A stretch of 64,000 bases of DNA from Flavobacterium selenitireducens (GCF_014748335.1 NZ_JAAVIY010000002.1:162840-226839); one strand, 5' to 3'. Counted from the first letter of the stretch, positions 23,853 through 36,204 are shown. Notes: generated from the letters alone by a model not told the origin. Numbers and translations are program-made.

Positions 23853-24680
23853 ATGGAAGTTCCTCAGCTCGAAGCCATCCAAACCGTCCTGACAAAAATC
23901 CTCGGGGCAAATACCAGTTATTGTTATGAGAACGACAATGAGTTCAATGTGTTTGGCCTGAGCGGAATTGGGCGAGCGCAACATCGGCTGGGCATATTGA
24001 TCGTTTCGGATAACGACGCGACCTCGCTTCCTGGTCAGATTTCTCAGGAAATCGAGGCCGCGTTCGAATGCGAAATGCCCATTGCGCTGCTGTTGCACAA
24101 ACCAAAATCCTTACAAACCAAATCCCACGACCAACGCTGGTTTTTCGACCAGGTGATGCGATTCGGATATAGGATGACGCTGGACCATAAAAACCCGCCT
24201 TACCTGAACCAAACGGGATTTCCGCAACGCGATATTCCAGGCGCCCGTCAATATTGGGACAAGTGTAGCGCCCTGGCCAACCAGTATTTCGAAAGTGCGG
24301 TCTCAAGCGAAAGGCTCGACGTAGAACTGATTAAAGTAGCGATGCTTTCGACCGCCATGGAATTTGTCGCATTGGGATTGATACGGGTATTCATCGGCTA
24401 CACGCCCAATCGCCACAGTCTGAAATTTCTGTTCTCGATCACGGGTGCCTTCACCGACATACACGAAAAAATATTTGAACCACATACGGAGGTCGGCCAA
24501 AGATGCCTGAAACGACTTTACGCGTCTCCCAACATGTTGCGCCATTGGAATGAACTGAAAATGGACGAATCAGACTACGCGTTTCTGGAAAGCACTTGTG
24601 AACGGTATCTGACGGAAGCCACGCAACTTTCACTAAACGAATTACAACGACTCGAAACAATCAAACACAGCAACTCATGA
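23853..24680 (+). CDS. Hypothetical cytoplasmic protein
   Basis: A 275-aa ORF with no signal peptide. The segment GLSGIGRAQHRLGILIVSDND is weakly reminiscent of a nucleotidyltransferase GS...D.D motif, but the order is atypical. Confidence 0.55.
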   Translation: MEVPQLEAIQTVLTKILGANTSYCYENDNEFNVFGLSGIGRAQHRLGILIVSDNDATSLPGQISQEIEAAFECEMPIALLLHKPKSLQTKSHDQRWFFDQVMRFGYRMTLDHKNPPYLNQTGFPQRDIPGARQYWDKCSALANQYFESAVSSERLDVELIKVAMLSTAMEFVALGLIRVFIGYTPNRHSLKFLFSITGAFTDIHEKIFEPHTEVGQRCLKRLYASPNMLRHWNELKMDESDYAFLESTCERYLTEATQLSLNELQRLETIKHSNS

Positions 24681-25078
24681 CAACTGCAGGATTAACGCTC
24701 GCCCCGGAGTTTTTGGCACTTGCCGCCGATCATTTCCGGTTACTAACATCAGAAAACCTCAAAAAAAAGCAAGACACCGTAGAACTTCGGCTTTCAGGTT
24801 ACAGCGATGTCATGTTTTTGATAGCCGATATCGTAAAAGTTTCGCTCCTGGCTTTGAACAAAGGAGAAAACAGCGATTACCCATTCATTCCTGATCCCGC
24901 CTCGAACGTAAGTGGCGTGCTCTCGGTGATCCTCGATTTACTTCCGTATGAAGAAGCGAACCTGCTCGATAAGATCCGAGGTGCCGTTCCCGACCATGGT
25001 GGCGCACAAGAAGAAGATTGGGATTTTATATCGCAAAGCATCAGGCTTACGGCTCCTGCGAGTCTATCAAACGAATAG
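24677..25078 (+). CDS. Hypothetical protein, start overlapping the upstream gene (ATGA)
   Basis: A 133-aa ORF in a translationally coupled arrangement with 23853..24680. Confidence 0.5.
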   Translation: MTTAGLTLAPEFLALAADHFRLLTSENLKKKQDTVELRLSGYSDVMFLIADIVKVSLLALNKGENSDYPFIPDPASNVSGVLSVILDLLPYEEANLLDKIRGAVPDHGGAQEEDWDFISQSIRLTAPASLSNE

Positions 25079-25245
25079 ACCATTGGAGTGGGCGATTCAT
25101 ATATGGAAGAGGATATTGGATGAAGTCGTCGGTGCGTCGAACATTTACGTTATTGATAGACAAGTTTTTAATCATGTTCAGCAGATTGCGGAAATCCGTA
25201 AATCCATATTTTCCATATGCGTTAGATTTGTGAAAATCCTTTACA

Positions 25246-25989
25246 ATGAAAAAATTTATACTTATTGGCATTCTCGCAGTTTTTAGTTCCTGCTCTACAA
25301 ACAAATTTTATCAGATTTATAAGACAAAACCAGTGGCATCCGATTCTCAAAGCAACGTTTATGAGACTCCCGAGTGCCGGATTTCGTATGATTTTTGGGC
25401 AGAAGGAGGCGATGCGGGCTTTACGATTTACAACAAAACGTCCGAACCGTTGACCGTCAACATGGCCAAATCATTTTATATCGTAAACGGAAAGGCATAC
25501 GATTATTTCCAGGCACGCACTTTTATGACGGCAAAATCCGAAACGAAAGCGGCTTATGCAAGCACGTATCTCTATCGCCTGAACATGGCCTCGTCCGCAG
25601 CTGTTTCCAGTGGGCATTCTACTTCATACGTTGAACGACCTGAAATAATAATTCCTCCAAAAAGCGCTAAAGATTTCAGGGAATACACGATCAACCTGCT
25701 TTATTTCCCGCACTGCGACTTAGTTAAATATCCGACGAAGCGCAAGATCAAGTCGGTGAATTTTGGTTTGGAAAATTCTCCCTTCGCGTTTTCCAACAGC
25801 ATTTCGTATGTCGCGAACGGGAAACCGACAACCGTCGTACACGACTTCTACGTTCATGAAATCGTCAATTTGCCGTTGAGCGAGGAAATCAAGAACGTCA
25901 AATTGGAACGATGCGACAGAACCGTGAACGGATTGAAGCATGTAAACGAATCCAAGGACAACTTTTACATCGAATACAGCAAGAAGTAA
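25246..25989 (+). CDS. Hypothetical lipoprotein
   Basis: MKKFILIGILAVFSSCSTNK has a signal peptide plus lipobox. The product is 247 aa. Confidence 0.6.
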   Translation: MKKFILIGILAVFSSCSTNKFYQIYKTKPVASDSQSNVYETPECRISYDFWAEGGDAGFTIYNKTSEPLTVNMAKSFYIVNGKAYDYFQARTFMTAKSETKAAYASTYLYRLNMASSAAVSSGHSTSYVERPEIIIPPKSAKDFREYTINLLYFPHCDLVKYPTKRKIKSVNFGLENSPFAFSNSISYVANGKPTTVVHDFYVHEIVNLPLSEEIKNVKLERCDRTVNGLKHVNESKDNFYIEYSKK

Positions 25990-26003: not shown

Positions 26004-26024
26004 TGGCCGTGCGATCATCACGGC
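26004..26024. terminator. Bidirectional terminator hairpin between convergent genes
   Basis: GGCCGTGcgatcatCACGGCC followed by GTTTTCATTT. The flanking genes end at 25989 (+) and 26030 (-). Confidence 0.5.
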
Positions 26025-26029
26025 CGTTT

Positions 26030-29000
26030 TCATTTGGACTGTTGCCCCAAAATGTCCTTGATTTGGCCCAGATGTCCTGTGAATTCGGCAAATTGTTGTA
26101 ATAGCAATGCCATTTCGCTCTTATCGCCGAAACCTTTGAGCTTGTTGTTTTTGACAAATGTCTGTTTGATCGTCTCCCAGCGTTCGTTTTCGACTTCCGA
26201 TAAAGTGCCGGTCAACTCCTTATATTTCAATAAATTGGCTTCTGCCGCGCTCGTCAGCGTTTGCGTTTCGTTCTGATAATGCGAGAGCAATAGCGTTGCG
26301 ATTTCAGAATCATTCATGACCGGTTCTACCTTGGCTACGAGCTTGTTCATGTCGCGGTACGAACCCTGAAGCTTGAACGGCGGTTCTGTGCGGTAGGCAT
26401 CTTCCATGGCGGCGGAAGCGATGTAAGCAGCATTCGCCTGCAACACCACGCGTCTCACTTTGAGGATTTTTTCCAAAAGCGACAGGTAAGTTTCGACATC
26501 TTGCCTGGTGTGGTTCCCAACGAGGTCGAAGCCGTCTTTCTGACCCGTCTCAGCCATTTTTACCAACGGATACAAATCGTCCATATTTCGCGCCAGTTGT
26601 GCCAAAACAGGATTTGCGGTCATGGAATTTTCGATTAGGCTCAATTCGAAAAGGTGTGAAGTATTCCCGATCACGTCGCCGAGGTTGTAAATATCAGCAC
26701 GGTTGGCAAGCATATCTGGAATGCGGAATTTCTCGCCTGTTTCCGTATACGGATTCCCCGCCATGACGACGCAGAATTTCTTCGATTTCAAATCATACGT
26801 TTTGGCCTGACCGTTATGGACACCCTCGATTTTGCGCGTTCCGTCTGCAAGTGAGATGAATTTTTGAAGAAACTCAGGGCTGCAATGTTGGATATCGTCG
26901 AGGTAGAGCATGACGTTGTTGCCCATTTCCAAAGCAAGGTTGAGCTTCTTGAGTTCTTCACGCGCGGCCGAATTCGTAGCCGACATCGGGTCGACGGACG
27001 TGATTTCGTGTCCGATCGCCGGCCCGTTGATTTTCATGAAGACCAGTCCGAGGCGGTTGGCCAGATATTCCATCAACGTCGTTTTGCCATAACCCGGAGG
27101 CGAAACCAACAACAACATGCCCGATCGGTCAGTGCGTTTGCTATCGCCCGAACTTCCGATCTGTTTGGCGAGATTGTCCCCGAACAAAGGCAGGTAAACC
27201 TGGTCGATCAATTTATTCCTGACAAATGAGGTCAGCACTTTCGGAAGGAACTCGTGAAGGCGCAATTCGTGCTTGAGTTGCTGTGTCAATTGGTGGCGCT
27301 GCTCGCGGAATCGCTCAAAAGCCGGGACATCGGTCTCGAAATAGCGCTTGAGCAAAGCCATGAAATCGTGATAATGGAACTGGAAAACGCCGTCGGTAAT
27401 CGTCGGATGCGATCCGGCGAGGCCTGATATAATTTCTTCCGGTTCGATTCCCGAGACTTTTTCGGCCGATTCATGCCGGAACAACAGCAAGGCGACAACT
27501 TCATAGAGATAGTCAGACAAACTATCGCCGTTCGATTGCCGATTGCCGGCCTCGTCCAAATAAGACGAAACCCATTGGATCGCCAGTTGCAAGGCTGTCG
27601 TGTCATCAGCCGATTCCAGACTGCGCCTAAAACTTGCCAGCGCGCCCTTGGACTCGAGCATCTTTGTAAAATTCTCGGCAATTTCAGATGCGCGTCGGCT
27701 AACGTGGAAAGCGTCGTCGGTTTTTAGCTCTTCGAACAAATAACGCGCGATTTCCGAAACATCAACGTTGGCATTTTTCGAAATCGGGTTGCCGGCTAAA
27801 AACGAAGCCGCATTCTGTTCCAGTTCATCGACAATATATTCGAATTCCGTGCTCTGAGGAAAAACCGCCAAAACATTGCCCGACGCCTTGATTTTAGCGT
27901 TGAGCGCATTTCGCGAATCGGCATTGAGATGAAACCAGACGAATTGTGCGAACGCGCGTGTTGTTGGCGAAAAACGCAGCAGTTTCAGGTTGTTGTGTTT
28001 GTTGACCAACACCGTCAGGATTTTGAGTGCGTCCGCGTCGTGCACGCCTTTTACGTAACCTTCGGTATAATTTTTTGAAGTTTCGTCCTTGACGATGGCC
28101 TCGAGTTCTTCGTGTGTCAAGCCGTAAAGTGCGGCAGCACCTCTGTTTTCGAAGATTTTGTAGGCCAAATAGGCCGCGCGGTATATTTCGGCATTTTCCG
28201 AAATCAAATCCTGGGACCAATACTTTTGCAGATCATGAAGCGCATTCTCGGAAATTTCCTGGTAAAAATCGGTTCCCGTCAAATGATAATTCAGTTTGTT
28301 CTCTTTATAGACGATCGTCAAATCGAGCGGCTGCTTGTTGACCGCAAATTTGTGCTTGCCTAACCGGATGATGTTTTCTCCGTCTTCGTACAAATCCTGT
28401 TTGTCCCTGAGTTTGCGCATCGCATCTTCCTGGGCGGACTTGAGCTGTGTTTCTATGGCTTCGGCCTTGCCCGTGTCTTCCAACTGTTGCAATTGGGAAA
28501 CGAGATCGCGCAGTTTCGAGATCATCAAATCGGAAGCGAAATAACCGTTGATTTCCTCTGCGGAATTGAATGTCAACGCCTTTGACGCTACATTTTTGAG
28601 AATGCGTCCCGAGGCAGATTCTATGGCCACCGCTTTTTTGTTCCTGACTTCGACCAGGCTGTTTTTCCGAGCCTCGAAAGCGGCGTAAATTTCTTCCCGC
28701 TTTTCAAGAATGGAGGCCGTAAATTCTTCGTAATCTGCAAAACGGGCCTCGAGATCTTCGAGTTGTATCGAGATCTTGTTGAGCGACTCATCGGCTTTTT
28801 CAGGTGTGGTCGCGCGGTCGATCGCATTTACGATGGCTTGGTCGACCAGCTTGATTTGGGCGGCAAAATCGGCTCTTGCTTCTTGTCCGCCAAGCGATGC
28901 CACCTTGTTTTTGATGTCGGCCTTGAGCCGGTTCAGCGAGGCAAAAATAAGCGAGATCGAGTTGATGATTTGCGTCGATTTCGAAGTGTCGGCGATCTTG

Positions 29001-30886
29001 AGGTTGGATACGATGTCGATGAGCATTTCGAGGTCGGACGTAATGGTATCGACTTCTTCCTCCAGGCTTTTTGCCTGGGCCACGGTCGTGATTTTCCCAA
29101 GGTCTTTTTGTTTTTCAGAAACGCGGTCTTGGTAAGGTACGAGCGCCTTTTCGTCCATCAGGAACTGAACGCAGTGCTGGGAGATGACTTCGGTTTGGGC
29201 GACAATTTCGGCTTCGATTTCGGCAATGAACGTTTCGTCGACGTATCGGATGTCGCGCAAACTGATGACCTCTCCTCTCAAAGTGCGCAATCCTGATAAA
29301 TCCGCTACGAAAACGTCGATGTTGTCGAGAGGGGAACTCTTGATTTTGGTGAAAAGCGATTCGGCTTTTTCGCGGACCGCCTCAGTCGTTTTGGCCGCAT
29401 TGGCACGCAATTGCACGACTTTTTCGAATTCGTCGATCGCGGTATTGGCCGTGTTCCTGATTTCCGTCAACGGAAGATGCAGCTCGAACGTTTCTTTGCT
29501 CGTAATCCAGTAATAACCGTCGAGAATGTTCTGGGCGAGCCGCGTCAGGTCTGCATACAAACCGTCGTAGTCGTCGTCTTTGCTGAGCAATGTGATGATC
29601 GAATGGCAATCGGCCATTGCTTTTACGATGTCCTTGTTCCCGATTTTGTAGAGAAAGCTGTCTTTGTGCTCGGTTGGCATCACATCCCCTTTTACAAAAG
29701 GTGTCTGCCAAATCTGGACGAGATGGTTTTTGGTGTGTTCGGCCTCGGCCCTGAAATAGCACAACTCGCCGTTTTCTAGAATTGTAAATCCGTTGCAGAT
29801 GATGGGCGTCGTAACCTCGTGCGTGATCAGGTTGTATTGCATCAGCACATACTGACCGGATTTTTCCTCATAAAAAACGTAGAGGAAATCTTCTCCGTTG
29901 GGAGAAGTAATCCTTTCCTGGAACAAAAGGTTTTGCAAGCTGGTTTCGAAAATCTTATACTCGCCCGTCTGGAGGTAATAGCCGTTCGAGAAGATCAGAC
30001 CGTGTTGATCCGGCAGCAAAATCGCCGAAGTCGAGAGGCTGTCAATTTTCTTGACTTCCTGTAATTTGTGGTTGTAGATAAAAAATCGCGCCGCTTCCTG
30101 AAACGGTTTGATTTGTAATGCGATGAGGTTTCCGAGGTCGGCGAATTGGTAGTTTCCGTCGTCGAGCGTCTGGTCGGCGTGCATGACTTCTTCGTCATAA
30201 ATTCCCTTTCCCGTGCTGGTGTTGTCTTCGATTTTTATCGTCAAGGTTCCGCCGATGGTTTCCACAAAAACCTTGTCCAGTATCGAAACGTGCTGGAACT
30301 TTCCGTATCGCTGCATTTCGCGTGTGGCTTCCTGCCAGTTGAAATCGTGTTGTCGCGGATATTTGTATTCGCTGTCGCTGCGGTTATCCTGGTAAAAAAG
30401 CGTATCGTCTTTGATAAGCCACTTGAATGTCTTGATGTCGGTCAAGCGGTCGCTGAGCTGGAAGACCATGTGCAGGTAATTCCCGGTAACGAAAAATTTG
30501 CGGAACTCCGTATCGCGATAATATTTGTAGAGATTGAAGAAGTCGTCGAGGAACGTTGCATCTGCGATGAAATCCATGTTTTGCTGATGAAACTCTCCGT
30601 TTTCATACGTGTAAATGCTAAAGACGTCTTCCGTCTTGATGTCCGTTCTCAGGCCAAAATGCACATTGTAGCCAAAAATGCAGGTATTGCCCAGGCAAAC
30701 GATATCGCTGGGAATGCAATTGTTCTCGGTAATGATGCGGTTGTTGCCTATAAGTTTGGTTTCGGTACTTCCGAAAATCAGCTTTCGCGCCTCGTTCAAT
30801 TGCTGCAGCCTGCCCGCCAAATCCTGTTTTTGGGCGTCGAGCCTGCTGCGTATGATTTCATATGTACCGCCTTCGAGTGTACTCAT
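26030..30886 (-). CDS. Giant (1618 aa) protein with C-terminal AAA_5-type ATPase domain
   Basis: The C-terminal approximately 350 aa carry Walker A (LLLVSPPGYGKTTL), Walker B (VMLYLDDIQH) and downstream blocks typical of the dynein/MoxR/McrB-like AAA_5 family (CVVMAGNP, IPDMLANRADIY). The preceding approximately 1250 aa are predicted helical/coiled-coil-rich with no recognised catalytic motif. It is the last gene of the psp/flotillin operon. Confidence 0.85.
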   Translation of the reverse strand: MSTLEGGTYEIIRSRLDAQKQDLAGRLQQLNEARKLIFGSTETKLIGNNRIITENNCIPSDIVCLGNTCIFGYNVHFGLRTDIKTEDVFSIYTYENGEFHQQNMDFIADATFLDDFFNLYKYYRDTEFRKFFVTGNYLHMVFQLSDRLTDIKTFKWLIKDDTLFYQDNRSDSEYKYPRQHDFNWQEATREMQRYGKFQHVSILDKVFVETIGGTLTIKIEDNTSTGKGIYDEEVMHADQTLDDGNYQFADLGNLIALQIKPFQEAARFFIYNHKLQEVKKIDSLSTSAILLPDQHGLIFSNGYYLQTGEYKIFETSLQNLLFQERITSPNGEDFLYVFYEEKSGQYVLMQYNLITHEVTTPIICNGFTILENGELCYFRAEAEHTKNHLVQIWQTPFVKGDVMPTEHKDSFLYKIGNKDIVKAMADCHSIITLLSKDDDYDGLYADLTRLAQNILDGYYWITSKETFELHLPLTEIRNTANTAIDEFEKVVQLRANAAKTTEAVREKAESLFTKIKSSPLDNIDVFVADLSGLRTLRGEVISLRDIRYVDETFIAEIEAEIVAQTEVISQHCVQFLMDEKALVPYQDRVSEKQKDLGKITTVAQAKSLEEEVDTITSDLEMLIDIVSNLKIADTSKSTQIINSISLIFASLNRLKADIKNKVASLGGQEARADFAAQIKLVDQAIVNAIDRATTPEKADESLNKISIQLEDLEARFADYEEFTASILEKREEIYAAFEARKNSLVEVRNKKAVAIESASGRILKNVASKALTFNSAEEINGYFASDLMISKLRDLVSQLQQLEDTGKAEAIETQLKSAQEDAMRKLRDKQDLYEDGENIIRLGKHKFAVNKQPLDLTIVYKENKLNYHLTGTDFYQEISENALHDLQKYWSQDLISENAEIYRAAYLAYKIFENRGAAALYGLTHEELEAIVKDETSKNYTEGYVKGVHDADALKILTVLVNKHNNLKLLRFSPTTRAFAQFVWFHLNADSRNALNAKIKASGNVLAVFPQSTEFEYIVDELEQNAASFLAGNPISKNANVDVSEIARYLFEELKTDDAFHVSRRASEIAENFTKMLESKGALASFRRSLESADDTTALQLAIQWVSSYLDEAGNRQSNGDSLSDYLYEVVALLLFRHESAEKVSGIEPEEIISGLAGSHPTITDGVFQFHYHDFMALLKRYFETDVPAFERFREQRHQLTQQLKHELRLHEFLPKVLTSFVRNKLIDQVYLPLFGDNLAKQIGSSGDSKRTDRSGMLLLVSPPGYGKTTLMEYLANRLGLVFMKINGPAIGHEITSVDPMSATNSAAREELKKLNLALEMGNNVMLYLDDIQHCSPEFLQKFISLADGTRKIEGVHNGQAKTYDLKSKKFCVVMAGNPYTETGEKFRIPDMLANRADIYNLGDVIGNTSHLFELSLIENSMTANPVLAQLARNMDDLYPLVKMAETGQKDGFDLVGNHTRQDVETYLSLLEKILKVRRVVLQANAAYIASAAMEDAYRTEPPFKLQGSYRDMNKLVAKVEPVMNDSEIATLLLSHYQNETQTLTSAAEANLLKYKELTGTLSEVENERWETIKQTFVKNNKLKGFGDKSEMALLLQQFAEFTGHLGQIKDILGQQSK

Positions 30887-30970
30887 GTGTTCTTTTTTTG
30901 ATTTTCCCGATGTCAGGGCAAATAAGAAACCCGCGTAGAAGTTACGCGGGAAACTGTTGTTCTAAGGGTA

Positions 30971-33031
30971 TCAGCCGAGCTTCTTCCCGGACAATCCAAG
31001 GTTTTTGGCCATGTCCGTCAATTTCGAAAACAGGCTTTTCTCGCCTTCGTCATTGCTTCGGTTTTGCAGTTCGACGAGCAATCCGGCAACAGTCAGATTT
31101 TTGATGTCTTCGGATGAAATCCCGTATTTATCGGCAAAACCTTTGATCCTGTCAAGCAGGTTGCCGTCTGCTTCCGATCCTTCTCCCAAAATCGCATCCT
31201 TGATCTCGGTAATGTTTTCCGAATGGTTCACCAGTCTGTCGAAACCTTTGGCGCGCGTGATTTGCCCGACGATTTGGTCGAAGAACATCGTTTCGCCTCC
31301 CACGATATCGATCTTCGCGGCTTTCAACGCTTCCCCGATCACATTGGCCTGGGCATCGGCAATGTCCTTTTGGATGTTGATGTGGGCCAAATCGACCTGA
31401 AGTTCCTTGTTGAGACGCAACTTGAATTCCTCGTGTTCTTTCCCGACGCCATCCAGTTTTTTCATTGCTTCCGCTTTTTCCTGGATTCCGAGTGCTTCCG
31501 CGAGTGCTTTTTCCTTGATGACTTCGGCTTCCATCGCGCCCAACTGGAGTTCGGCTTCGGCTTTGGCCTTGATTCCGGCGGCTTCGGCAACGGCTTTCTT
31601 CTCGATGATCACAGATTCTACGATTCCCTGTCTCTCGCTGGCATCGGCTTTGGCATGCATCACTTGTGCTTCGGAAAGTCCTAGCGTAGCGTCTTCTTTG
31701 GCTTTTGCGTCGGCCAAAATCTTCCTGGCTTCAGCCTCTTTCTCGCTTGCCGCCATCCTTGCCGTGGCCTCGATGTTGATTTCCTCCGCTTTTTGTTTGG
31801 CAGCTTCTTTTTCTGCTTCGGCAGCTTTCAAGCGCTTGATGTAAAGCTCCTCACTTTCTTTTTCGGCGAGCGTGACGGCCACTTTTTTCTGGCGATCGGC
31901 TTCCTTGAACGCCTCGATGTCCTTCATGTTTTCCTGTTCCTGGACGACTCCTTTTTCGAGCACGACGCGATCGCGGATTACGTTCTGGATGTTTTTTCGC
32001 TCGACCTCGACGGCTTTTTCTTTTTCGATTTGCGCCAACGTCACGATGCGTTCTCTTTCGGTTTGCTCGAGTGCGCGATCTTTTTCGACTCTTTCTGTTT
32101 CTACGGCTTCGGTTCGCTGCTTGTTCTTGGATGCCACGATCACGAGCCTGTCTTTGTTCTCTTCGGCCACCATTACTTTTTCGGTAGTGTTGATGCGTGC
32201 CGTTTCAGACTTCAATCGCTCTTCCTCATTGACTTTGATGATCTCGGCTTCCTCTCGCGCCTTGATGTTGGCGATTTCGCGTTTTTGCTGTTCTTCTTTT
32301 TCGGCCAATTGTCGGTCGAGGGCCAGGATCGCTTCTTTGGCTTCTACGTCTTGTTTGCGGATGGTTTTCTCTTCGTCCCGACGGATCAGGTTGGCCTTGA
32401 TATTTTGCGCCGCGGTCAACTCCGTAATTTTTTTGATACCTTCCGAGTCGAGGATATTGTCGGCTTTGAGCTGGGAAAGCGGCGTTTGTTCCAAGTCGTC
32501 TATTGCGCAGTCGTCGAGGACATATCCGTTAAGGTCGGTTCCGATGATCGAAATGATTTCCTCGCGGAATTCGCTCCTGGCTTCGTACAATTCGACAAAA
32601 TCGAACTTCTTTCCGACGGTTTTCAACGCTTCCGAAAACTTTGCGTCAAACAGGTTTCTCAATACGTCTATTTCAGAAGCGCGTTCACAACCGATGGTTT
32701 GCGCAACGTTGATGATGTCGGCTGTCGATTTGTTGATCTTGATGAAAAACGTCACCTTGATATCTGCGCGGATGTTGTCTTTACAGATCAACCCGTTCAC
32801 GCCGGTGCGTTCTACGTCGAGTTTCTTTACGGAAATATCCATGATTTCCATTTTGTGCAATACAGGGACGACAAGCCCGGCGTTGAAGAACACTTTAGTC
32901 CCGCCGGCTCCCGTGCGCACGATGACTTTCCCTTGGATTATTTTTTTGTACATCGAAATGACCCACACCAACAGTCCGATGACGACGACAATGATGGCAA
33001 TCATAGTAATGAGTAGCGAATTTCCTAGCAT
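30971..33031 (-). CDS. Flotillin-like SPFH/band-7 protein (YqiK/FloT type)
   Basis: An N-terminal TM helix is followed by an SPFH domain (IVRTGAGGTKVFFNAGLVVPVLH...). A long EA-rich coiled coil (KAEAELQLGAMEAE...) follows. The product is 686 aa. Confidence 0.88.
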   Translation of the reverse strand: MLGNSLLITMIAIIVVVIGLLVWVISMYKKIIQGKVIVRTGAGGTKVFFNAGLVVPVLHKMEIMDISVKKLDVERTGVNGLICKDNIRADIKVTFFIKINKSTADIINVAQTIGCERASEIDVLRNLFDAKFSEALKTVGKKFDFVELYEARSEFREEIISIIGTDLNGYVLDDCAIDDLEQTPLSQLKADNILDSEGIKKITELTAAQNIKANLIRRDEEKTIRKQDVEAKEAILALDRQLAEKEEQQKREIANIKAREEAEIIKVNEEERLKSETARINTTEKVMVAEENKDRLVIVASKNKQRTEAVETERVEKDRALEQTERERIVTLAQIEKEKAVEVERKNIQNVIRDRVVLEKGVVQEQENMKDIEAFKEADRQKKVAVTLAEKESEELYIKRLKAAEAEKEAAKQKAEEINIEATARMAASEKEAEARKILADAKAKEDATLGLSEAQVMHAKADASERQGIVESVIIEKKAVAEAAGIKAKAEAELQLGAMEAEVIKEKALAEALGIQEKAEAMKKLDGVGKEHEEFKLRLNKELQVDLAHINIQKDIADAQANVIGEALKAAKIDIVGGETMFFDQIVGQITRAKGFDRLVNHSENITEIKDAILGEGSEADGNLLDRIKGFADKYGISSEDIKNLTVAGLLVELQNRSNDEGEKSLFSKLTDMAKNLGLSGKKLG

Positions 33032-33071
33032 TTGTGTTTGTTTATTTGGTGAATATTTAAAGGTTTTGGTT

Positions 33072-33725
33072 TCAGTAGTCGAACTTCTCGACGAGGTAAT
33101 ATTTCTTGTCTGCGCTTTCGCCGACGATGACGCCTTGTTCGCCCGGCTTGAGGATTTCGTCTGTATTGCTCCGGGCGTAGAGTTTCATCGGATCGCCGTT
33201 CACGACAAGTTCGATTTGCCCGGTCTTGTCCGCGGCCACAGACGAAAGCACACCACAGCGTCTTCCGAGGAAATCGATTTCCGGCTCACCTTTGTGGTTC
33301 AGCTGTTTGTAAAGGTAACCGAGCGGTTTGCTGAAAAGCTTGACGACGAAAAGACTCAGGATGAAGTTTGGAATCAGCAATAAGAAACCTAGGAGCGTAC
33401 TTTCGATTCCTGTGTAATAGGTAACGTTCACGCCTATGAGCCACATGCTGAAAAAAATGATGGTCAGGATGAACATCAGCGGCAGTTCGTCGAAATTGAA
33501 ATATTCTAGCACTTTAATGAATCCGTTGCCCTCATGCGCGTTTCCGCTTCCGGAAGGGTCGTGGTCGAAATTGCTCCCGACGTCGGCTGAATCAAAGTCG
33601 ATGCTGAACGCATCCGGATCGAGGCCGGCGATAATGACCAAGATCCAATAAAGCAGCATGGCGATGGACATTATCGTGAAAAAGGCGTTGACGGGCGAAA
33701 ACGAGATTTCTAAAAGTTCTTTCAT
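33072..33725 (-). CDS. NfeD/YqiJ-like membrane protein with C-terminal OB-fold
   Basis: A 217-aa product with two or three TM helices (IMSIAMLLYWILVIIAGL, LMFILTIIFFSMWLIGV, LLGFLLLIPNFILSLFVV). The soluble C-terminal beta-rich domain (GEPEIDFLGRRCGVLSSV...QIELVVNGD) resembles YqiJ/YuaF. It lies immediately upstream of flotillin, as in yqiJ-yqiK. Confidence 0.7.
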   Translation of the reverse strand: MKELLEISFSPVNAFFTIMSIAMLLYWILVIIAGLDPDAFSIDFDSADVGSNFDHDPSGSGNAHEGNGFIKVLEYFNFDELPLMFILTIIFFSMWLIGVNVTYYTGIESTLLGFLLLIPNFILSLFVVKLFSKPLGYLYKQLNHKGEPEIDFLGRRCGVLSSVAADKTGQIELVVNGDPMKLYARSNTDEILKPGEQGVIVGESADKKYYLVEKFDY

Positions 33726-33770
33726 AAGTTATTTTGCGCGAGCGGTGAATTAGGCGTCCTGATATTGCAA

Positions 33771-34484
33771 TCAGTCATTCTTGCCGTTTATACCGAGTTG
33801 TTCTTTGAGCTTTTCCAATTCGCTGTTTGCTTTCGATTTCTTGACGTCTACGGCTTTGTTGATTTCGGCATCTATTGATTTTGACGAATTGGCGATGTCG
33901 CCATACGCTTCGGCGAGCGCCTCTTCCTGGTTGACTTTTTCTTTCATGCGTTCCAGCAAAGCGATCGTCCCGTTTCCGTCGATCCGGGCCATCTGTTTGT
34001 TGAGGCTTTTGGTGGCATCGGCCACTTTGACGCGCGAACGCAAGATCTTGAGCTCGTTTTCCCACTTGGAGATATTTTGCTTGATCGTCTGCACGTTTCC
34101 TTCCATTTGCAGGACGTTCTGGTCGAATTTTTCCTTGTCGGAAATTGCGCGGTCCTTGAGCTGGATCGCTTCTTCTTTCTTGACCAAAGCTTCGGTTGCC
34201 AAGCGGTCGGCTTCTGCCGGTTCCATGCCTCCGTTTTGAGCTTTTTTCAACAGCAGCATCGCTTTTTCATTGTAGTCTTCGGCTTTTTCCTCATAGTCGC
34301 CGACCTCTTTTTTGGCTCGGATGCTCATCGCCTTGACCTGCGCCAGGGCTTCGAGGGCTTTGTCCAGGTCTTCTTTCATATCCCGGATGCCTTGTTCGGT
34401 CATCTTTATCGGATCTTCCATATTGTCAATTGCGTGGTGGACTTCGGCTTGCCCGATCTTGAAAAGTCGTCTCAGGAATTTCAT
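33771..34484 (-). CDS. PspA/IM30 (Vipp1/ESCRT-III-like) family protein
   Basis: The N-terminus MKFLRRLFKIGQAEVHHAIDNMEDPIKMTEQGIRDM matches the conserved start of PspA/YjfJ proteins (...EDP.K...Q.IRDM). A 237-aa, all-helical, coiled-coil product. Confidence 0.85.
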   Translation of the reverse strand: MKFLRRLFKIGQAEVHHAIDNMEDPIKMTEQGIRDMKEDLDKALEALAQVKAMSIRAKKEVGDYEEKAEDYNEKAMLLLKKAQNGGMEPAEADRLATEALVKKEEAIQLKDRAISDKEKFDQNVLQMEGNVQTIKQNISKWENELKILRSRVKVADATKSLNKQMARIDGNGTIALLERMKEKVNQEEALAEAYGDIANSSKSIDAEINKAVDVKKSKANSELEKLKEQLGINGKND

Positions 34485-34488
34485 GGTG

Positions 34489-34884
34489 TCAGTTTTTAGA
34501 AAAGTTAATAATCTGTTCGGAATACTCGCTCAGCAACAAACTAAGCGAGTTGAGCGTCGCATTGAACTCATTGAGGTCAAGGTTTTCGAGTTGAAGCGAG
34601 TCCCGAAAGATCACCTTTCTTCCCGTTTCATCAAGGACAAATGCGCCGTGTATGATATCGCGGTTCTTTTTGAGCAATTCCTTGTAGATCAAAGGGGAAT
34701 CTGATTTGATTTCGAAAAGGAACTGTTCAAAAATAACGATTGGATAGGCCACACAAATGATAAGGTTGAAGATGCCTTCCTGTTCGCTGCTCGCGATAAG
34801 AACACATTCGTTGCGGTTCTCATATTTAATCTCGAGCTCGAGGTGGGTCAGATAGCCCTTGACAACATCGAAATAGTCCTTCAT
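34489..34884 (-). CDS. Small cytoplasmic hypothetical protein, possibly YjfI/DUF2170-like PspA partner
   Basis: A 131-aa ORF sitting 4 nt upstream of the PspA-family gene. The size and position mirror E. coli yjfI-yjfJ. The family is not verified. Confidence 0.5.
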   Translation of the reverse strand: MKDYFDVVKGYLTHLELEIKYENRNECVLIASSEQEGIFNLIICVAYPIVIFEQFLFEIKSDSPLIYKELLKKNRDIIHGAFVLDETGRKVIFRDSLQLENLDLNEFNATLNSLSLLLSEYSEQIINFSKN

Positions 34885-35083
34885 AAATGGAATTTTGGTT
34901 GGTGATAAAACTCGCTTTTTTGTGCTTTACAGTCAAATTAAATTGGCAGTTTGTGATTCAATTTCAGCAATTTTCATAAAATTGCTCAAAGCGTTGGCCA
35001 AATTGCTATATTTGCTAATAACAATAGCACAAATATAAAACCTGTTTTCATATTTGCAAATATTTTTAGCAATTTTTAGTAGC

Positions 35084-35824
35084 ATGTTCGGAAAAAATAT
35101 AAAAAAGATCAGAAGCGTCCATGGTTTGAGCCAACAACAATTCGCTGAAATGTTCGACCTCAAGCGGGCCACGCTCGGCGCTTATGAAGAAGGACGCAGC
35201 AATCCGAAAATGGACACGGTAATTAAAATTGCCAATCACTTCACGCTTGATATTGAAGAACTGCTCACAAAGGAACTTACGGTAAACCGGCTGTTGCGCT
35301 TCAACGAAACCATTACGACGAGTTCGGTTAAATCCCAGGATTCGGTTTTTGAGGGAATTCCTTGCGTAACTAAAGAAAATAAAGACGCGTTCCTGGACTC
35401 GCTGATCAGCCCAACCCGGATTGCGTTGCCGATGATTTTCCTGCCGTTTACGACTCCGACGGACAAAACCGCTTTCGTGGTCGAGGATGCCACGATGTCC
35501 GCCGGTCCGCTTCCGCTGCTCCCGAAAGACACCGTCATTGGGGAAAAGGTAGAACTCAACGATCTCGGCATGGCATCGGGTAAATTGGCGGTCGTTGCCA
35601 CGAAAGGACAACTGCTGTTGCGCAAGATGACGGTCTCCGGCAATTCGGTCGCGCTTCAGGCTTCTCAACCTGGCATCGACGCGATTGAAATCCCGATGTC
35701 GTCCTTGTCTGCCGTTTGGCTGGTCAGGCATGTTTTCCACTACAATCTCCCCTCAGAAAACGAAGTAGAAAAAAGATTGGCTGCTTTGGAAGATGCTCTG
35801 GCCAATCTCGCTGGAAAACGGTAG
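35084..35824 (+). CDS. XRE-family HTH regulator with C-terminal LexA/S24-peptidase-like domain
   Basis: The N-terminal HTH is MFGKNIKKIRSVHGLSQQQFAEMFDLKRATLGAYEEGRSNP. The C-terminal beta-domain has VVEDATMSAGPL...GEKVEL...GQLLLRKMT, resembling the S24 Ser and Lys regions. The ORF-track start at 35054 is probably 10 codons too early, so the start was moved to the Met immediately preceding the HTH. Confidence 0.75.
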   Translation: MFGKNIKKIRSVHGLSQQQFAEMFDLKRATLGAYEEGRSNPKMDTVIKIANHFTLDIEELLTKELTVNRLLRFNETITTSSVKSQDSVFEGIPCVTKENKDAFLDSLISPTRIALPMIFLPFTTPTDKTAFVVEDATMSAGPLPLLPKDTVIGEKVELNDLGMASGKLAVVATKGQLLLRKMTVSGNSVALQASQPGIDAIEIPMSSLSAVWLVRHVFHYNLPSENEVEKRLAALEDALANLAGKR

Positions 35825-35844
35825 TTTCCGGCACAAATAAAAAA

Positions 35845-35867
35845 ATCCGGAGAAAGACTCCGGATTG
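35845..35867. terminator. Terminator hairpin between the regulator gene and tRNA-Arg
   Basis: ATCCGGAGaaagaCTCCGGAT preceded by an A-run, and followed on the minus strand by a T-run. Confidence 0.5.
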
Positions 35868-35872
35868 CTATG

Positions 35873-35944
35873 TAGCCCCGCCAAGAATCGAACTTGGATC
35901 AAAAGTTTAGGAAACTCCCATTCTATCCGTTGAACTACGAGGCC
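35873..35944 (-). tRNA. tRNA-Arg (anticodon CCT)
   Basis: The reverse complement folds as a 72-nt cloverleaf: GGCCUCG UA GUUC AACGGAUA GAAU G GGAGU UUCCUAA ACUUU UGAU CCAAG UUCGAUU CUUGG CGGGGCU A. The T-arm has GTTCGATTC and the anticodon loop is UU-CCU-AA. CCA is not encoded. Confidence 0.8.
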
Positions 35945-36122: not shown

Positions 36123-36130
36123 TCTGTTTG

Positions 36131-36204
36131 CTCCCCCTCTTGGGCTCGAACCAAGGACCCTCTGATTAACAGTCAGATGCTCTAACCAACTGAGCTAAGG
36201 AGGA
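36131..36204 (-). tRNA. tRNA-Asn (anticodon GTT)
   Basis: The reverse complement folds as a 74-nt cloverleaf: UCCUCCU UA GCUC AGUUGGUUA GAGC A UCUGA CUGUUAA UCAGA GGGUC CUUGG UUCGAGC CCAAG AGGGGGA G. All four stems are canonical. Confidence 0.9.

Follow-up and report, generated by a model that had tools for sequence, protein, structure and literature searches.

A conserved cassette of a YqiJ/NfeD-like protein, a YqiK-type flotillin, and a giant MoxR-type ATPase, with an optional PspA block, in Flavobacterium selenitireducens

The locus and its proteins

We analyzed a 64,000-nt stretch of DNA from Flavobacterium selenitireducens (NZ_JAAVIY010000002.1:162840-226839; hereafter the window). It contains a cluster of five genes that encode, from 5' to 3', a CesT/Tir-type chaperone-like protein, PspA/IM30, a YqiJ/NfeD-like membrane protein, a YqiK-type flotillin, and a giant ATPase of 1618 amino acids (aa). 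A gene for a regulator lies upstream and is divergent (Table 1). All positions are those of the whole window, over which a list of open reading frames (ORFs) was computed mechanically. For the five co-directional genes on the minus strand, this list gives exactly the limits that were claimed in an initial annotation, which a model had made from the sequence alone. The gaps between the genes, from 5' to 3', are 4, 45, 40, and 84 nt. The initial annotation had given spacings of 4-85 nt or overlaps; no genes overlap.

Table 1. Features of the cassette and its surroundings (window positions, except in the last row)
Feature	Position	Strand	Remarks
Hairpin GGCCGTG-ATGATCG-CACGGCC	26005..26025	-	4 nt past the ATPase stop codon; 7 bp, 6 G-C
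Giant cytoplasmic ATPase, 1618 aa	26030..30886	-	Beta-propeller, helical spacer, MoxR-type AAA+ module
AAA+ module, ~aa 1225-1500	26387..27214	-	Pfam AAA_5 and AAA at 1258-1381
DUF7902, aa 580-662	28901..29149	-	PF25472, E = 1e-26; within the ~700-aa spacer
DUF3686, aa 22-459	29510..30823	-	586 bits; N-terminal helix, then beta-propeller
Hairpin CCCGCGTA-ACTTC-TACGCGGG, then TTTCTTATTT	30930..30950	-	8-bp stem, 6 G-C pairs
YqiK-type flotillin, 686 aa	30971..33031	-	Anchor 1-33, SPFH 30-178
YqiJ/NfeD-like membrane protein, 217 aa	33072..33725	-	C-terminal soluble beta-rich tail
PspA/IM30, 237 aa	33771..34484	-	ESCRT-III superfamily; N-terminal amphipathic helix
CesT/Tir-type chaperone-like protein, 131 aa	34489..34884	-	4 nt upstream of pspA
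Divergent control region, 169 bp	34885..35053	.	Palindrome, half-sites, and two opposed boxes
Palindrome AGCAATTTT-N3-AAAATTGCT	34966-34986		9+3+9, in the control region; from sequence and repeat scan
Two back-to-back TATATTTG boxes	35007-35014; 35030-35037	+; -	In the control region
Divergent regulator, 256 aa	35054..35824	+	N-terminal Cro/C1 (XRE) helix-turn-helix, S24/LexA-like C-terminal domain, C-terminal helix
Hairpin	35844-35866	-	Minus-strand T tail; immediately follows tRNA-Arg(CCT)
tRNA-Arg(CCT)	35872-35944	-	Beyond the regulator gene
tRNA-Asn (GTT)	36130-36204	-	Own T-tailed minus-strand hairpin, 36097-36125
Extra genes at the Aquimarina locus L011	3704-4018, 4918-5472, 8393-8746, 8853-9857		Positions within L011

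The giant ATPase is 100% identical to a database protein from F. selenitireducens that is named "DNA repair ATPase." It has no transmembrane segment. For residues 1-470, a model predicted with AlphaFold 2 (pLDDT 88.5, pTM 0.87) consists of a helix and a beta-propeller, and Foldseek matched this model generically to WD40-type propellers (such as DCAF1, Vps18, Vps11, and IFT-A), with probability 1.0 but a TM of only ~0.3. In a sequence search of PDB, matches of the N-terminal domain to Cas1 were at chance level, and we rejected them. Clustered at 50%, the DUF3686 family comprises 718 representatives, of which the complete ones are 1600-1930 aa long. The spacer that follows is rich in E, K, A, Q, R, and L and poor in G and P; it was termed a coiled coil by Ravi et al. 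(PMC11237479).

The AAA+ module is the only enzymatic module of the protein and is C-terminal, as the initial annotation had it. Its motifs comprise Walker A (SPPGYGKT, with K1268), Walker B (YLDDIQH, with D1330 and D1331), sensor 1 (N1378), a pre-sensor-1 beta-hairpin (1352-1365), a candidate arginine finger (R1396), and two candidates for sensor 2 (R1499 and R1511). Walker A, Walker B, N1378, R1396, R1499, and R1511 are invariant both in 24 sequences and in 105 sequences. Across phyla, the C-terminal 470 residues are 52-60% identical, as compared to 35-60% for the propeller region and 30-44% for the spacer. When the AAA+ region was compared to PDB, as a single sequence and as a profile of 24 sequences, only the Walker A neighborhood of p97, VAT, and RuvB was matched, so a fold comparison was needed. 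The closest folds are MoxR, dynein, and midasin. The fold therefore stays AAA+, which had been flagged beforehand as a point to check. Neither an MIT domain at the N-terminus nor a classical-clade AAA fold was found in the protein. The motor is a MoxR/dynein-type AAA+ module with intact nucleotide-binding motifs and is not Vps4-like.

The 131-aa protein, previously called hypothetical, matches CesT_Tir_1 (PF22550) over its entire length (profile positions 1-131 of 131; 170.2 bits with a cut-off of 27; E = 2.6e-50). The assignment of PspA is confirmed by a full-length match to PF04012 (residues 4-229 of 237; 127.7 bits with a cut-off of 33.9; E = 6.4e-37). PspA has the N-terminal sequence MKFLRRLFKIGQAEVHHAIDNMEDP and zero hydrophobic or transmembrane segments.

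The 217-aa protein has three hydrophobic segments, at about 11-40, 78-104, and 107-133. Its similarity to known families is slight: YqiJ_N scores 19.8 bits, which is under Pfam's cut-off of 23; no NfeD domain was matched in Pfam; and E. coli YqiJ is matched only marginally (E = 0.014). The ortholog from Hymenobacter is annotated as DUF1449 (the YqiJ family), and a protein from the plasmid pQBR103 links the 217-aa protein to a Deinococcus protein with a match to NfeD (E = 0.0024). The assignment as YqiJ/NfeD-like leans on its position, its size, the three transmembrane segments, and the transitive link to Deinococcus.

The flotillin was recognized as YqiK-type in the initial annotation, and two results bear this out. 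First, when the N-terminal 228 aa were scanned alone, Band_7 matched residues 30-178 (47.5 bits with a cut-off of 23.6; E = 2.9e-12). Second, E. coli YqiK aligns with the protein over 446 aa at 29% identity (E = 2e-41), and the alignment covers the SPFH domain and continues beyond it. The anchor at residues 1-33 is the one N-terminal hydrophobic segment. The full-length protein has no match in Pfam even at E = 10, and neither residues 214-589 nor residues 515-686 match any Pfam family, including the flotillin-specific domains. The region from ~200 to 520 is charged (61% E, K, A, Q, or R) and likely helical, and this composition may trigger HMMER's bias filter. Other full-length flotillins of the subfamily also lack any Pfam match (L001 5622-7790, L003 5880-7925, and L004 5871-7829), which probably explains why the flotillins from Hymenobacter and Deinococcus are labelled as hypothetical proteins. 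A sequence search of PDB gave no match to the flotillin.

A conserved core with an optional PspA block

The combination of genes, which the initial annotation took to be undescribed, has already been published for a member of the Flavobacteriaceae, the family to which F. selenitireducens belongs. Ravi et al. (mSystems 2024, PMC11237479; bioRxiv 2020) described a CesT/Tir-PspA dyad together with three further genes: a YqiJ/YuaF membrane protein, a protein with Band-7, coiled-coil, and flotillin regions, and a protein with a beta-propeller, a coiled coil, and an AAA+ domain. Their Table S3 gives this architecture for Dokdonia donghaensis DSW-1 (ANH61663.1), including a divergent gene for a cHTH plus protease protein. 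They also reported that shortened operons without PspA are more widespread, and they suggested ESCRT-like roles for associations of PspA with AAA+ proteins. Popp et al. (PMC9239133) likewise found PspA together with band-7/FloT, NfeD, and HTH regulators. All six genes of F. selenitireducens agree with the class of Ravi et al. in order and orientation, and we see no architectural difference, so the cassette is a member of this described class. A Dokdonia locus is in our set (L039), and its ATPase is 63% identical to that of F. selenitireducens in the best segment. In the literature, we found no experimental study of the giant ATPase, and a full-text search for flotillin and MoxR together gave nothing relevant.

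Besides plasmid records, the conservation of the cassette was followed in a scan with one genome per species, in which the best 80 matches were kept as further loci. Upstream genes were counted wherever 7 kb or more of DNA was available on that side (71 loci), or at 75 loci when four newly fetched loci were included. A flotillin gene lies upstream of the ATPase gene, adjoining it and on the same strand, at 70 of the 71 loci, and YqiJ is present at 68. The regulator, CesT, and PspA are jointly present at 52 of the 71 loci and never singly: CesT accompanies PspA at 52/52 loci, and at all 52 the regulator is present, upstream, and divergent.

We used bridging queries for six loci, from Proteus, Halomonas, Vibrio, and Nonomuraea (the newly fetched ones) and from Streptomyces and Deinococcus (already among the 71). 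The core is present at each of them and PspA is absent from the locus. The small upstream membrane proteins of Streptomyces and Deinococcus are YqiJ-like by this approach. Overall, the YqiJ-like protein, the flotillin, and the ATPase form an invariant core at 74 of 75 loci. The lone exception, L083 (3417-15490), has no upstream flotillin; genes for an alpha/beta hydrolase, a STAND NTPase, and a MalT-like TPR protein adjoin the ATPase gene, and a transposase is nearby.

The gene arrangement is thus far beyond chance, with the same order at 52 loci and the three-gene core at 74/75. The initial annotation had proposed a conserved co-directional, membrane-associated cassette that unites PspA, an NfeD/YqiJ-like protein, a YqiK-type flotillin, and a giant ATPase, and this description holds. 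It had also proposed to examine whether the ATPase is syntenic with PspA/flotillin genes. Synteny is strongly conserved; PspA is missing from many loci. The evolutionary core consists of a YqiJ/NfeD-like protein with three transmembrane segments, a YqiK-type flotillin, and a cytoplasmic ATPase of 1600-1900 aa. In Flavobacteriaceae and some Cytophagales, this core gained the CesT-like chaperone, PspA, and the divergent XRE/S24-like regulator as one block. Because the core is constant while the PspA block is optional, the obligate partner of the ATPase is the flotillin and not PspA.

The link between the ATPase and the flotillin was also examined in both directions across 72,556 plasmid records. 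Of these records, 13 contain the ATPase. The C-terminal domain of the flotillin (520-686), which is specific to the subfamily, is in 11 records, every one of which is among the 13 with the ATPase. The body of the flotillin (1-519) matches 314 records, and the top 13 of these, at 36-56% identity, coincide with the 13 that have the ATPase; beyond them, identity declines to ~30%, with proteins from Rhizobium and Shinella and E. coli YqiK-like proteins. Given this co-occurrence, the ATPase has its own subfamily of flotillin, with a private C-terminal domain.

Within the Flavobacteriaceae, the cassette is chromosomal and is vertically conserved over genera. Full-length homologs of the ATPase (34-47% identity) are also found in plasmid-labelled records from Hymenobacter, Proteus, Photobacterium, Pseudomonas, Halomonas, Vibrio, Streptomyces, Nonomuraea, and Deinococcus. 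The neighborhood in Hymenobacter has the identical six-gene arrangement, whereas in Streptomyces and Deinococcus the ATPase gene is accompanied by genes for a small membrane protein and a flotillin. Several of the cassette-bearing "plasmid" records (NZ_OL790812.1, NZ_CP040452.1, NZ_CP050465.1, and NZ_LT559118.1; L086-L089) have lengths of 1.8-11.9 Mb; they look like chromosomes or chromids and are almost unannotated in the PLSDB gene table.

In the plasmid pQBR103 of Pseudomonas fluorescens SBW25 (L002 1-13190), a cluster of YjfI, PspA, and polyamine genes runs into genes for YqiJ-like, SPFH, and ATPase proteins. Here a different PspA/YjfI pair stands beside the core, which is an independent second association. 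The same co-directional cluster holds genes for a rhomboid protein, DUF2491, DUF350, DUF1190, and glutathionylspermidine synthase, and it unites two groups of operons that Ravi et al. kept separate.

Several loci carry additional genes or domains. In Aquimarina (L011), a YbjQ_1 protein is encoded after pspA and a second, short Band_7 protein before the flotillin, and an ORF with sub-threshold similarity to DUF3592 and a weakly TPR-like ORF lie between the flotillin and ATPase genes. Outside the Bacteroidota, the ATPase homologs are 1770-1906 aa long, and several have extra ankyrin or TPR repeats. One homolog (P0155, 1711 aa) is from a eukaryotic protein set, where contamination or gene transfer is possible.

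Hairpins, regulator, and flanking genes

Among terminator-like sites of the region, the one that ranks first is a hairpin within the cluster itself, which the initial annotation had missed. This hairpin lies 21 nt past the stop codon of the flotillin gene and 44 nt ahead of the start codon of the ATPase gene. Among 48 related loci, 79% have a stable hairpin in this gap; the median best hairpin is -18.2 kcal/mol, and the median z is -5.2 relative to shuffled sequences. For the gaps between YqiJ and flotillin and between PspA and YqiJ, z is near 0. We view the hairpin as a candidate attenuator or partial terminator that may set a low ratio of ATPase to flotillin. With a stable hairpin here and in most of the relatives, the single transcript that was originally proposed is uncertain.

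Two other hairpins had been taken as terminators that bracket the operon. At the 3' end, where a hairpin had been placed at 26004-26024, there is one (at 26005-26025), but its downstream tail, ATTCGTTTTC, is T-poor. It is likely the 3' end of the unit, and a function as a terminator is plausible. The other hairpin, on the far side of the regulator gene and originally placed at 35845-35867, is the terminator of tRNA-Arg(CCT) and therefore does not bracket the operon. A scan for sigma-70 promoters, which does not model Bacteroidota promoters, did no better than on shuffled sequences (11 sites as compared to 10.8 expected), and we disregarded its sites.

The regulator has a clear HTH domain (HTH_3, E = 9.6e-12), while Peptidase_S24 matches with just E = 0.13 in Pfam; its ortholog from Hymenobacter carries a LexA-family annotation. 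The true start is likely the ATG at 35084 instead of the TTG at 35054, since conservation begins at "MFGKN." In 53 regulator sequences (52 orthologs and the F. selenitireducens protein), the HTH is conserved, but the Ser-Lys dyad of the S24 domain is not. T, S, E, or V precedes the conserved Met, and most sequences have Arg in place of the Lys. Because the Ser position varies and the Lys is mostly replaced, LexA-like self-cleavage is unlikely, and we rejected it. The S24/LexA-like domain is probably a sensor or dimerization domain.

Besides the palindrome, the divergent control region contains extra copies of AAATTGCT, which would be half-sites. At the equivalent site, other Flavobacteriaceae have a palindrome of the AACAATATTAGCTAATA type, also given as the TATTAGCTAATA type. 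The -7 consensus of Bacteroidota promoters is TAnnTTTG, and we take the two TATATTTG boxes to agree with it. The boxes and the palindrome may be promoters and an operator.

As for the flanks, the proximity of tRNA genes was considered as a sign of an integrated island and rejected, as it is not conserved at 25 related loci. Downstream of the cassette, the plus strand at 23853-25989 has two overlapping ORFs (275 and 133 aa) and, within the same interval, a predicted lipoprotein of 247 aa (MKKFILIGILAVFSSC...) with no match in Pfam or NCBIfam. The G+C content there is lower (0.44-0.46).

What the cassette may do

We propose that the locus is a membrane-maintenance cassette in which the ATPase is an ATP-driven remodeller of flotillin/NfeD assemblies and, in some lineages, chaperoned PspA is recruited as well. 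We hold this view with middling confidence. The flotillin and YqiJ would assemble into an SPFH cage or microdomain at the inner membrane, on its cytoplasmic side. The ATPase would oligomerize via its AAA+ ring, and its propellers (and the spacer) would reach the SPFH cage, probably docking on the C-terminal domain of the flotillin. ATP would be used to assemble, open, or dismantle the cage. The CesT-like chaperone would keep PspA unpolymerized, and PspA would be delivered to the flotillin platform, where it would stabilize damaged membrane. The regulator would govern the two back-to-back promoters, and the hairpin after the flotillin gene would keep the ATPase sub-stoichiometric to the scaffold. 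In a more specific version, which we put forward tentatively, the giant protein would be a dedicated machine for flotillin cages, with a MoxR-type ring, long helical arms, and, at their ends, propellers that grip the private C-terminal domain, and PspA would be an optional client.

Parts of this proposal resemble known systems. The pairing of NfeD proteins with flotillins is established. In yqiJK of E. coli and yuaF-floT of B. subtilis, as in F. selenitireducens, an NfeD/YqiJ-like gene is directly upstream of the flotillin gene. Unlike in F. selenitireducens, no gene for an ATPase, PspA, or CesT adjoins yqiJK, and the C-terminal 245 aa of the F. selenitireducens flotillin do not align with E. 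coli YqiK. In pspA-ydjGHI (samGHI) of B. subtilis, as here, the PspA gene is grouped with genes for an SPFH protein and for membrane partners, but the SPFH protein is of another subfamily, the partners are YdjG/H, and there is no AAA+ ATPase and no CesT-like chaperone. The SPFH protein of that system, YdjI, is required to recruit PspA to the membrane (PMC8581546), and the recruitment of PspA in our proposal would be parallel to this. A dyad of a CesT-superfamily protein and PspA is also encoded in yjfIJ of E. coli and in the polyamine-linked cluster of pQBR103; there, however, the chaperone is YjfI/DUF2170 instead of CesT_Tir_1, and genes of polyamine metabolism lie in between.

A precedent for an AAA+ machine that works with an SPFH cage is HflK/C-FtsH, the known case at the inner membrane of bacteria (PMC13220708). 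The protease FtsH belongs to the classical AAA clade, is anchored in the membrane, and is enclosed by the cage, whereas the F. selenitireducens ATPase is soluble and MoxR-type, lacks a protease domain, and has a propeller and a long spacer.

Several points weigh against our proposal. MoxR ATPases normally act with a partner that contains a VWA domain, and their canonical size is about 250-500 aa. Unlike CbbQ, NorQ, and RavA of that family, the module here ends a 1618-aa protein, and no VWA family in Pfam matches any protein of the operon. Also, Walker B has D-D (codons at 26890-26895) instead of D-E, which is unusual; it is invariant in the 105 sequences, which represent many phyla. That the propeller would dock on the C-terminal domain of the flotillin is deduced from co-occurrence only. 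The Flavobacteriaceae are over-represented among the 80 matches of the genome scan, and the absence of PspA was judged at the ATPase locus only. Finally, the hairpin between the flotillin and ATPase genes could be a true terminator, with a separate promoter for the ATPase.

An alternative is that the giant ATPase is a Vps4-like motor that disassembles or remodels polymers of PspA, with the flotillin and NfeD proteins as merely a platform; this is close to the analogy drawn in the initial annotation. PspA belongs to the ESCRT-III superfamily, and, as with ESCRT-III and Vps4, a PspA gene and an AAA+ gene are in one cluster, co-directional at 52 loci. The association recurs in pQBR103 with a different subfamily of PspA, and the ESCRT-like roles suggested by Ravi et al. 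(PMC11237479) point the same way. But the AAA+ module is of another clade than Vps4, the MIT domain is absent, and the ATPase occurs without PspA at many loci. We therefore consider this reading less likely than our own, and unlikely overall; the mechanistic analogy should be redirected from PspA to flotillin. We are more doubtful still that the locus comprises two units, namely an operon of regulator, CesT, PspA, YqiJ, and flotillin that ends at 30930-30950 and a separately transcribed neighbor, the ATPase. This would account for the position of the region's best terminator-like hairpin in the 84-nt gap and for the hairpins in the same gap of most related loci, and in Aquimarina and others the flotillin gene is separated from that of the ATPase by extra genes that take up 0.6-2.4 kb. 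No sigma-70-like promoter scored in the gap, although the scan does not cover Bacteroidota promoters. Whatever the transcript, the strict two-way co-occurrence of the ATPase with the flotillin subfamily and the constant order and strand argue for functional coupling. Separate transcription of the ATPase is possible, but not functional separation.

The cassette might instead be a mobile stress or defence system (for instance, against phages or by abortive infection) and have no housekeeping role in maintaining the membrane. It has copies on plasmids or megaplasmids (Hymenobacter, pQBR103, Streptomyces, and Deinococcus), its flanking genes vary by genome, two tRNA genes abut it here, and its regulator is of the XRE/CI type that is common on mobile elements. 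However, the five operon proteins have no match in PADLOC (PADLOC-DB 2.0), where generic HTH models match the regulator only; no homolog of the ATPase was found in 50,697 phage records (by tblastn) or in IMG/VR contigs; and Pfam identified no nuclease, toxin, or other effector domain. Together with the vertical conservation on Flavobacteriaceae chromosomes, this makes a role in defence improbable. That the 1618-aa protein is a DNA repair ATPase, as annotated, is more improbable yet. It is favored only by the name, which derives from Pfam's text for DUF3686 ("ATPase involved in DNA repair") and was propagated to NCBI product names. Pfam identified neither a DNA-binding nor a nuclease or helicase domain, genes for membrane proteins are constant neighbors of the gene, and a full-text literature search on DUF3686 yielded no paper. 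The product name is unsupported.

Our preferred reading remains that the ATPase acts on flotillin/NfeD assemblies. What we add to the published description is the MoxR-type fold, the all-or-none PspA block, the C-terminal domain of the flotillin, whose occurrence follows that of the ATPase, and the hairpin that is conserved in the flotillin-ATPase gap. The cassette ties the building, opening, and turnover of flotillin/SPFH assemblies, and the recruitment of PspA to damaged membrane outside of the classical Psp systems, to a large and strongly conserved ATPase, and is for this reason a good experimental entry point. Flavobacterium is genetically tractable. If our proposal is true, this protein would be the first ATP-dependent remodeller of bacterial flotillin microdomains, opening, closing, or recycling SPFH/NfeD assemblies.

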